Assembly (NCBI RefSeq): GCF_054482525.1
Contig: NZ_CM137006.1
Direction: 5' to 3' (one strand)
DNA length: 64,000 nucleotides
Shown here one piece after another: positions 9,761 through 41,469 of this stretch. Within the stretch, counting starts at the first letter, position 1. The number at the start of each line of letters is the position of its first letter. The notes beneath the pieces are model-generated. The model had not been told where the DNA came from and made no database searches. It saw only the letters and a list, made by a program, of their open reading frames with translations. The position numbers were made by a program, and so were the translations under genes.

Positions 9761-9951
9761 CTTTTGTTAACTCCTTTTTATAGATGCGGGAGGTAATTCC
9801 TCACCCCGGTGCCGATTTTCAGGCATCCTGATTTAACTTAGCACCCGCAACTTAACTACAGGAAAACAAAGAGATAAATGTCTAATCCTGATGCAAATCG
9901 AGCCGATTTTTTTATCTTTACGGACTTTTACCCGCCTGGTTTATTAATTTC

Positions 9952-36981: not shown

Positions 36982-40134
<3,153 letters not shown>

Positions 40135-40153
40135 TACAACGTGTAATCACAAA

Positions 40154-40176
40154 GGCCGCGCAAGCGGCCTTTTTTA
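40154..40176 (+). terminator. Rho-independent terminator after acrB
   Basis: GGCCGC-GCAA-GCGGCC stem-loop followed by TTTTTTA. Confidence 0.8.
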
Positions 40177-40679
40177 TGCATAACCGACGAACATTAAGAA
40201 GTCATTGAACCACCAACTCAGGATCTCATACGAAAACCAGTATTAAACACGTTTAAAATTCATAAAAAATACTGATTGTTAGTTAATTTATATTAAGTAG
40301 CGCTAATAGATTTAATAATCCATAATCATTTAGAGGCTATTCTTAATTATTTGCGGTAATTCTTTATTCATTCCTCGGTTATTACGTCATATTCAGAGCA
40401 ATCCTGGTATTAGTGTTACCAATTTCATCTGGCGATAATCCTGAAATGTTATGAACAGTTCGAGCAAACTGCTTTTACCTGCTGCGGGTTAGTGCTAGTA
40501 TGAAAAAGTAAGTCCTGTCCCGCTTCCTTCCTAATTGTAATTTTTCGTAATAATGCGATGAAAACCTGCAAAGAGTGGCTTATAGTTAAGCTAACAAACG
40601 AGAGGGCAAGTCCAGGTCAGTAAGTTTTTTCCATCCCGAAAGGTGTCCGTTAGTTCAACCACTAAGAAGGGGACGCGTT

Positions 40680-41054
40680 ATGGATGAATACTCACCCAAA
40701 AGACATGATATCGCACAGCTTAAGTTTCTCTGTGAAACCCTGTATCATGACTGTCTTGCAAACCTTGAAGAAAGCAATCATGGCTGGGTTAACGACCCAA
40801 CCTCGGCGATCAACCTCCAGTTGAATGAACTGATTGAGCATATTGCGACCTTCGCACTTAATTACAAAATTAAGTATAATGAAGACAATAAGCTCATTGA
40901 GCAGATCGACGAATATCTGGATGACACCTTTATGTTGTTCAGCAGTTATGGTATTAATATGCAGGATCTTCAGAAATGGCGGAAGTCAGGTAATCGACTA
41001 TTCCGTTGTTTTGTCAATGCGACGAAAGAGAATCCTGCGAGTTTATCTTGTTAG
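40680..41054 (+). CDS. tomB: Hha toxicity modulator TomB (YbaJ)
   Basis: 124-aa [40 protein letters not shown]..., immediately upstream of hha; preceded by a ~550-bp AT-rich leader. Confidence 0.9.
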
Positions 41055-41079: not shown

Positions 41080-41298
41080 ATGTCCGAAAAACCTTTAACG
41101 AAAACCGATTATTTAATGCGTTTACGTCGTTGCCAGACAATTGACACGCTGGAGCGTGTTATCGAGAAAAATAAATACGAATTATCAGATAATGAACTGG
41201 CGGTATTTTACTCAGCCGCAGATCACCGCCTCGCCGAATTGACCATGAATAAACTGTACGACAAGATCCCTTCCTCAGTATGGAAATTTATTCGCTAA
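41080..41298 (+). CDS. hha: Haemolysin expression modulator Hha (H-NS co-regulator)
   Basis: 72-aa product [72 protein letters not shown]; embedded in a longer out-of-context ORF-track entry. Confidence 0.93.
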
Positions 41299-41469
41299 TA
41301 AATAATTCGCTTTCGGAGCTATAACCGGCTGTTTATTAAGAATTTTATACTTTTTCGCCATGAAGACATACCCTATGTGATCTTTATCACACAGATGTAA
41401 TGGGAACGTTCTCTTCACTGACTTTTCGTCTTACTGTGTTGCCGCATTTTCAGCAACCGGAGGTCAGTA

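Follow-up and report, generated by a model that had tools for sequence, protein, structure and literature searches.

The 545-bp spacer that separates acrB from tomB in a 64-kb window of Escherichia coli DNA (the whole stretch that we analysed) is a real, conserved control region and not an accident of one strain. We consider it highly probable that this spacer is a non-coding composite, in which acrAB transcription is terminated and tomB-hha is controlled from a proximal sigma-70 promoter, P1 (Table 1). According to this model, P1 would fire at about 40591 to give a leader of ~89 nt, and a CpxR-type repeat would link P1 to envelope stress. PdhR, H-NS and, in other genera, probably RcsB would act from farther upstream to modulate or silence P1, with an AT core offering a nucleation site for H-NS, and a hairpin together with Rho would end acrAB transcription within ~120 nt of the acrB stop codon, providing insulation. 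Hha acts with H-NS to silence horizontally acquired genes, and TomB counteracts Hha. Because Hha and TomB tune silencing, the inputs to the tomB-hha promoter decide when silencing is tuned. What the analysis adds is mainly a correction, namely that the leader is short and that promoter-upstream DNA and acrAB termination signals make up the long gap.

Table 1. Features of the acrB-tomB spacer and the operon that it controls (window coordinates)
Feature	Position	Strand	Description and basis
acrB intrinsic terminator	40151-40175	+	Stem AAAGGCCGC / GCGGCCTTT, loop GCAA, T-run 40170-40175
C-rich, fast-evolving stretch	40176-40254	+	Escherichia-specific; ends at the mapped Rho termination region at ~40255
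AT core, probable H-NS nucleation stretch	40255-40375	.	22.3% GC, 121 bp; composition and published H-NS flag on the spacer
RcsB-like palindrome, decayed in Escherichia (TCAGAGCAATCCTG)	40393-40406	.	Cross-genus conservation and consensus fit
PdhR-type box ATTAGTGTTACCAAT	40409-40423	.	Consensus match and published PdhR control
Candidate distal promoter P2	40474-40501	+	TTTACC-16-TAGTAT with preceding TG (extended -10); predicted start ~40508
22-nt block TAATTGTAATTTTTCGTAATAA with CpxR-type repeat GTAAT-N5-GTAAT (40537-40551)	40532-40553	+	Conservation and motif
Proximal sigma-70 promoter P1	40558-40586	+	-35 ATGAAA 40558-40563, 17-bp spacing, -10 TATAGT 40581-40586
tomB-hha 5' UTR, ~89 nt	40591-40679	+	Transcript of Clarke 2014; conserved runs
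5' UTR motifs	CCATCCC 40631-40637; TGTCCGTT 40644-40651; Shine-Dalgarno AAGGGGA 40667-40673	+	Conserved runs
tomB	40680-41054	+	ORF and RefSeq annotation; operon under spacer control
hha	41080-41298	+	ORF and RefSeq annotation; operon under spacer control

The window runs in reverse to K-12 480-486 kb (K-12 coordinate = 521388 minus window coordinate), and acrA and acrB (36985-40134), tomB, hha and maa all lie on its plus strand. The first-pass annotation had placed about 545 bp of AT-rich non-coding DNA before tomB, and this stands: the last base of the acrB stop codon is 40134 and tomB starts with an ATG at 40680, leaving 40135-40679, with a GC content of 0.374, lower than in the window (0.525) and in acrB (0.536), and neither RefSeq nor K-12 annotates any feature inside it. 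The K-12 spacer (480709-481253) is likewise 545 bp long, which ranks first among the 44 spacers of K-12 455-505 kb (the runner-up measures 245 bp). At the sequence level the two are 97.8% identical, and eight of their 12 differences over 545 bp fall within the unconstrained 40151-40253. Among complete E. coli genomes, 5423 of 5426 contain the spacer at one copy per genome, split or partial in ~34 of the 5423. The acrB-tomB arrangement is kept in 75 Enterobacteriaceae species, whose spacers span 435-559 bp (median 509) at 35-40% GC, and both length and AT content are maintained over ~25 genera. When spacers from ~30 genera were aligned, a small set of conserved runs remained; these runs are informative because the lineages split long ago and neutral sites should be largely randomised. 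Most of 40176-40250 and 40420-40530 is not conserved in the cross-genus alignment.

The hexamers of P1 score 9/12 in a consensus scan, the -10 hexamer TATAGT is unchanged in 30 genera, and ATGAAA-17-TATAGT was reported as the constitutive sigma-70 promoter of tomB-hha (Shimada 2014). The tomB/hha transcript made by Clarke (2014) runs from -89, its primer beginning CTAACAAACGAG, which places the end at window position 40591, 4 nt past the last base of the -10; this end was set when the construct was designed, in a study that also mapped 5' ends. An E-sigmaS/RNAP ChIP-seq peak has also been assigned to tomB and falls at ~40496-40691 after an offset of ~+777, on our assumption that the ChIP paper used older coordinates. 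For the K-12 tomB-hha (ybaJ-hha) region, RegulonDB/EcoCyc and Shimada 2014 give the same hexamers, the H-NS flag and CpxR and PdhR membership, with no essential difference from the present strain. Both the region and its promoter, as well as the main regulators (sigma-70, CpxR, PdhR and H-NS), are already in the literature and databases. Where transcription starts, that H-NS binds, that tomB-hha belongs to the CpxR and PdhR regulons and that Rho terminates transcription are points taken from published work. The anatomy of the spacer, its conservation and the covariation of the terminator stem come from the present analysis, and which block each protein would occupy is our own assignment.

Activity confined to the proximal part of the spacer has been described in Salmonella: GFP is expressed from the proximal ~250-bp fragment but not from fragments centred ~380 and ~800 bp upstream, and deleting the proximal fragment mimics the tomB and hha mutant phenotype (PMC5133643). 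The fragment centred ~380 bp upstream would correspond to the AT core of E. coli. Besides this proximal-only activity, the Salmonella Typhimurium p922 locus (PMC5133643) has the CpxR block, the -10 and the 5' UTR motifs in common with E. coli; unlike E. coli, it carries a near-perfect RcsB-type box, TAAGAATATTCCTG, and is without the PdhR box and the 75-bp Escherichia insert. TomB binding to the tomB-hha promoter has been reported in Salmonella as well (PMC5133643). With a transcript that starts at -89 and upstream Salmonella fragments that are silent, the long 5' UTR proposed in the first-pass annotation is not supported, whereas its description of a complex regulatory region is borne out by the sigma-70 promoter, the CpxR and PdhR memberships, the H-NS flag and the RNAP ChIP peak. 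Of the simpler arrangement against which that description had been set, a single proximal start with no upstream transcripts or protein binding, one half holds, since the start is proximal; the other half does not, since upstream protein binding is documented.

Conserved runs continue into the short leader, as CCATCCC, TGTTCGGT, CACTCA and AAGGGGATGCG. RNAalifold pairs CCAUCCC with the Shine-Dalgarno GGGG and the start codon. Of the alignment cells, 95% would allow the resulting CAUCCC:GGGAUG helix to form, compared with at most 67% for slid controls, and about six out of eight other genera show it in their MFE or centroid fold. We found no covariation in this helix (alifold -3.06 kcal/mol, 0 compensatory pairs), as both of its sides are almost invariant; Escherichia reads GGGGACG, which breaks one pair and leaves it uncompensated. 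Fold z-scores ranged from -0.77 to +1.55, a structure signal no better than that of shuffles. Two other foldings were discarded: an alternative register of Shine-Dalgarno pairing was no better than the contiguous CAUCCC:GGGAUG, and a CCGAA/UUCGG hairpin in the 5' UTR, with 1 compensatory pair in five sequences and 68% pairing, was no better than shuffles. The complementarity of CCAUCCC to the Shine-Dalgarno region is a new lead, short of a finding, and may gate TomB translation.

Immediately upstream of P1, the 22-nt block contains TTGTAATTTTTCG, which is unchanged in 30 genera, and the rest of the block is nearly so. Its repeat, GTAATTTTTCGTAAT, matches the CpxR repeat GTAAA-N5-GTAAA at four of five positions in each half and lies 40-54 bp upstream of the transcript start. 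The pattern GTAAW-N5-GTAAW occurs twice in the window against an expectation of 0.36, and the same CpxR pattern recovered the cpxP site GTAAAACAACGTAAA, used as a positive control. Both tomB and hha are CpxR targets in RegulonDB, and tomB belongs to the CpxR iModulon; a CpxR ChIP-exo study does not have tomB among its own direct peaks, though the gene is in the iModulon and RegulonDB lists. In Yersinia pseudotuberculosis the orthologous operon, ymoB-ymoA, has a CpxR motif 56 bp upstream of TSS2, which is bound by CpxR~P, and this binding raises promoter activity (PMC13353760). Measured to the proximal start, the distance is ~56 bp in Yersinia and 54-56 bp in E. coli. Comparing the two by description, Yersinia differs in having two mapped starts, at -188 and -106 (PMC13353760), whereas the documented E. 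coli start is the proximal one only. From the motif and this analogy we infer that the invariant block is a CpxR site, at which CpxR~P, positioned at about -40 to -54, would activate P1 under envelope stress. The N5 spacer of the repeat is invariant too, beyond what CpxR needs, so the site may be under a further, overlapping constraint, such as a second protein or an UP element.

The repeat can also be followed outside the acrB-tomB arrangement. In Erwinia and Pantoea it is retained at -147 and -150, the same distance from the ATG as in E. coli. There tomB does not adjoin acrB, and a 117-aa gene whose family is unassigned ends ~143 bp upstream of tomB; in Erwinia the stop codon of this gene overlaps the CpxR-type repeat. 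Mangrovibacter has an acrB-tomB spacer of 846 bp in which the CpxR-type repeat is lost and TATAGT is kept. Elsewhere in the window, the other GTAAW-N5-GTAAW occurrence is GTAAAAGTCCGTAAA (9917-9931, minus strand), a perfect CpxR-type repeat.

The two Yersinia starts raise the question of a second promoter in E. coli. P2, a possible element predicted ~172 nt upstream of tomB, would give a ~172-nt leader with the CpxR block inside it, and CpxR~P could then switch transcription between P1 and P2. We regard such a two-promoter arrangement as possible, if on balance doubtful. It would parallel ymoBA, where the CpxR motif lies between the two starts (PMC13353760); Citrobacter, Salmonella, Klebsiella, Raoultella and some Enterobacter have TGnTAnnnT/TATAAT-like elements that precede the CpxR block by 39-58 bp; and the RNAP ChIP peak reaches ~40496. 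However, the P2 element is missing in E. albertii and three other Escherichia lineages, its hexamers total 8/12, under the scan threshold, and -10-like hexamers arise by chance in AT-rich DNA. P2 is offered as a new but modest lead, next to the proximal promoter P1 of the preferred model.

Farther upstream, ~70 non-Escherichia species carry the 14-bp palindrome TAAGAATATTCCTA, in most cases with 0-2 mismatches. Its position is constant, 165-180 bp ahead of the CpxR-type block, and it forms a conserved run in the 30-genus alignment. We call it RcsB-like from its agreement with the 14-bp palindrome TaAGaatatTCctA / TNRGANNNNTCYNA, which we take to be the operator consensus of RcsB/RcsAB. Both TAAGAATATTCCTA and our positive control, the rprA promoter box TGAGACGAATCTGA, agree with TNRGANNNNTCYNA. 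The wza box, a second control for RcsAB, gave no match within 3 mismatches, being 4 mismatches off, and its failure marks this RcsAB consensus as soft. Nearly all Enterobacteriaceae genera have kept the palindrome, which is decayed in Escherichia, beside the PdhR box: the E. coli copy retains eight of the nine specified positions of TNRGANNNNTCYNA with 5 mismatches to the 14-mer, and chance alone would produce the degenerate RcsB pattern about twice in 64 kb. In contrast to RcsB/RcsAB operators, the spacer palindrome is at least 100-135 bp from any candidate start and does not lie next to a -35. The conservation of an RcsB-type box across genera is a new, modest lead, and the palindrome may function as a putative Rcs input.

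The PdhR box sits 2 bp beside the RcsB-like palindrome and, in the cross-genus alignment, is confined to Escherichia. ATTAGTGTTACCAAT is the sole match to ATTGGTNNNACCAAT with one mismatch in the 64 kb (the PdhR criterion being the palindrome ATTGGTnnnACCAAT), and the spacer of the box differs from K-12 at 40417. The tomB-hha operon is cited as a published direct target of PdhR. The 'PdhR box' given for tomB in a 2020 gSELEX paper, AACGGAATCGACCAGCT (8/14), is a weak and different site: a sequence search showed that the coordinates in the paper are older K-12 ones, offset by ~+777, and that the site falls not in the spacer but within the 3' part of acrB (39664-39680, minus strand). We rejected it as a 5' UTR site.

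Taken as a set, the proximal repeat would wire tomB-hha to Cpx and the palindrome ~170 bp farther upstream would wire it to Rcs, with CCAUCCC gating TomB translation. We put this forward tentatively and think it unlikely to hold in full. In the literature we found no description of an Rcs input or an anti-Shine-Dalgarno element. If true, the RcsB-type box or the anti-Shine-Dalgarno pairing would mean one more envelope-stress input or translational layer, an incremental gain.

Within the 64 kb, a GC content of 27% or less over 120 bp is reached in just two places, the AT core and 7361-7490, the latter of which also holds a 3-mismatch RcsAB-like match at 7384-7397. Across genera the core is conserved in patches, with footprints at AAATTCATAAAAAATACTGATTG, TTTATAT, AATAAT (40314-40319) and AGAGGCTATTCTTA (40332-40345). 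The first-pass annotation had expected nucleoid-protein binding, and the acrB-tomB spacer as a whole was indeed flagged as H-NS-bound (Shimada 2014). Prediction of H-NS sites divided on this point: the decamer TCGATAAATT was not enriched in the spacer, which has a single 2-mismatch match, whereas a core of 22% GC is present. H-NS probably nucleates on this core, at 40255-40375.

The part that we propose for the ~350 bp upstream of the CpxR block is predicted from conservation, and beyond the proximal ~150 bp the spacer could instead be AT-rich filler, coated non-specifically by H-NS and with no specific function. Such a reading would fit the poor conservation of most of 40176-40250 and 40420-40530, and it would fit a natural strain, E. 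coli TUM13773, in which a copy of IS1 takes the place of 380 bp equivalent to window 40243-40622. Lost with those 380 bp are the AT core, both the RcsB-like and the PdhR box, the CpxR block and P1, together with ~30 nt at the start of the leader, and the element ends ~57 nt before the tomB ATG. Transposon insertions are also tolerated and have even been selected: the clones that emerged from 700 generations of competition included one with a DARS1-carrying transposon in the K-12 tomB-acrB spacer, an outcome left unexplained by the authors (PMC5010248). Against filler stand the retention of spacer length and AT content in ~25 genera, the fixed position of the RcsB-like palindrome and other runs across long-diverged genera, and the near invariance of 40255-40375 within Escherichia while its flanks vary. 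We judge the absence of any specific distal function to be improbable, and retain the composite model for the spacer as a whole.

At the acrB end of the spacer, the hairpin at 40151-40175 is the acrB intrinsic terminator. It starts 17 nt past the acrB stop codon and consists of a 9-bp GC-rich stem followed by T6, folds at -19.5 kcal/mol (z = -2.8) and is kept in 74 of 75 species. Its stem covaries, with compensatory variants AGGCCGC/GCGGCCT, GGGCCGC/GCGGCCC and AGGTCGC/GCGACCT. Downstream of it, 40176-40254 is missing in other genera, and most E. coli are 90-95% identical to the present strain there. The interval 40176-40255 contains 19 C against 11 G. We considered the 75-bp Escherichia-specific insert as a repeat element and rejected the idea, as it occurs at one copy per genome. 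A Rho termination region has been mapped to K-12 481133(-), which is window 40255, with a score of 2.08 and p = 5.6e-6 (Adams 2021, supplement 2), and the same study called no Term-seq 3' end at the acrB hairpin. The lack of a 3' end at the hairpin suggests that Rho backs up a leaky terminator, and, with the Rho region lying downstream, that some acrB read-through exists. Term-seq 3' ends do occur 72 nt into tomB (window 40752, K-12 480636) and at the tomB/hha junction (window 41081, K-12 480307), and hint at premature termination or processing inside the operon; RNase E cleavage was reported in the tomB/hha junction region (Clarke 2014).

Read-through of this kind, or a far-upstream promoter (e.g., at 40314-40319), could in principle produce a 5' UTR of 350-545 nt that acts as RNA. 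The TATAAT-like hexamer at 40314-40319 is conserved in many genera, the hairpin has no Term-seq 3' end and a Rho region downstream, and Yersinia has a second, more distal start (PMC13353760), all of which would agree with a long leader. But in Salmonella no promoter activity came from the fragment centred ~380 bp upstream (PMC5133643), Rho halts read-through at ~40255 (Adams 2021), the published transcript starts at -89 (Clarke 2014), the spacer gives neither an Rfam family nor a structure signal, and 40420-40530 is poorly conserved. We therefore hold a long leader to be very unlikely, and keep the ~89-nt leader from P1.

The first-pass annotation had also allowed for unannotated small ORFs or sRNAs, an idea that found no backing here. 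At a permissive E-value, the best Rfam match in the spacer reached at most 26.5 bits, where the gathering score is 66.8, and the weak sRNA matches (uxuA, isrD, STnc180 and STnc540) all fell on the acrB hairpin, far below threshold; at the gathering score, eight orthologous loci gave no match. None of the 14 ORFs of 10-40 codons in the spacer has a usable, properly spaced ribosome site, and their lengths and sequences differ across genera. Although several such ORFs exist, an ATG at 40451 lies within the conserved motif TAAC-N3-ATGAA and an 'orphan' Rho-terminated transcript signal has been placed at 40255 (Adams 2021), we give almost no credence to a hidden gene for a small protein or sRNA, given that the ORFs from the conserved ATG vary in length and sequence between genera, that the 21-codon ORF at 40558 has its first codon within the -35 hexamer, ahead of the point where the transcript starts, that RefSeq and K-12 annotate nothing there and that the only terminator in the spacer is that of acrB.

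Past the operon, the hha-maa spacer contains a perfect CRP-type palindrome, TGTGA-TCTTTA-TCACA (41376-41391). The palindrome precedes the maa ATG (41470) by ~80-95 bp and was also scored as terminator-like on the minus strand in the promoter/terminator scan.
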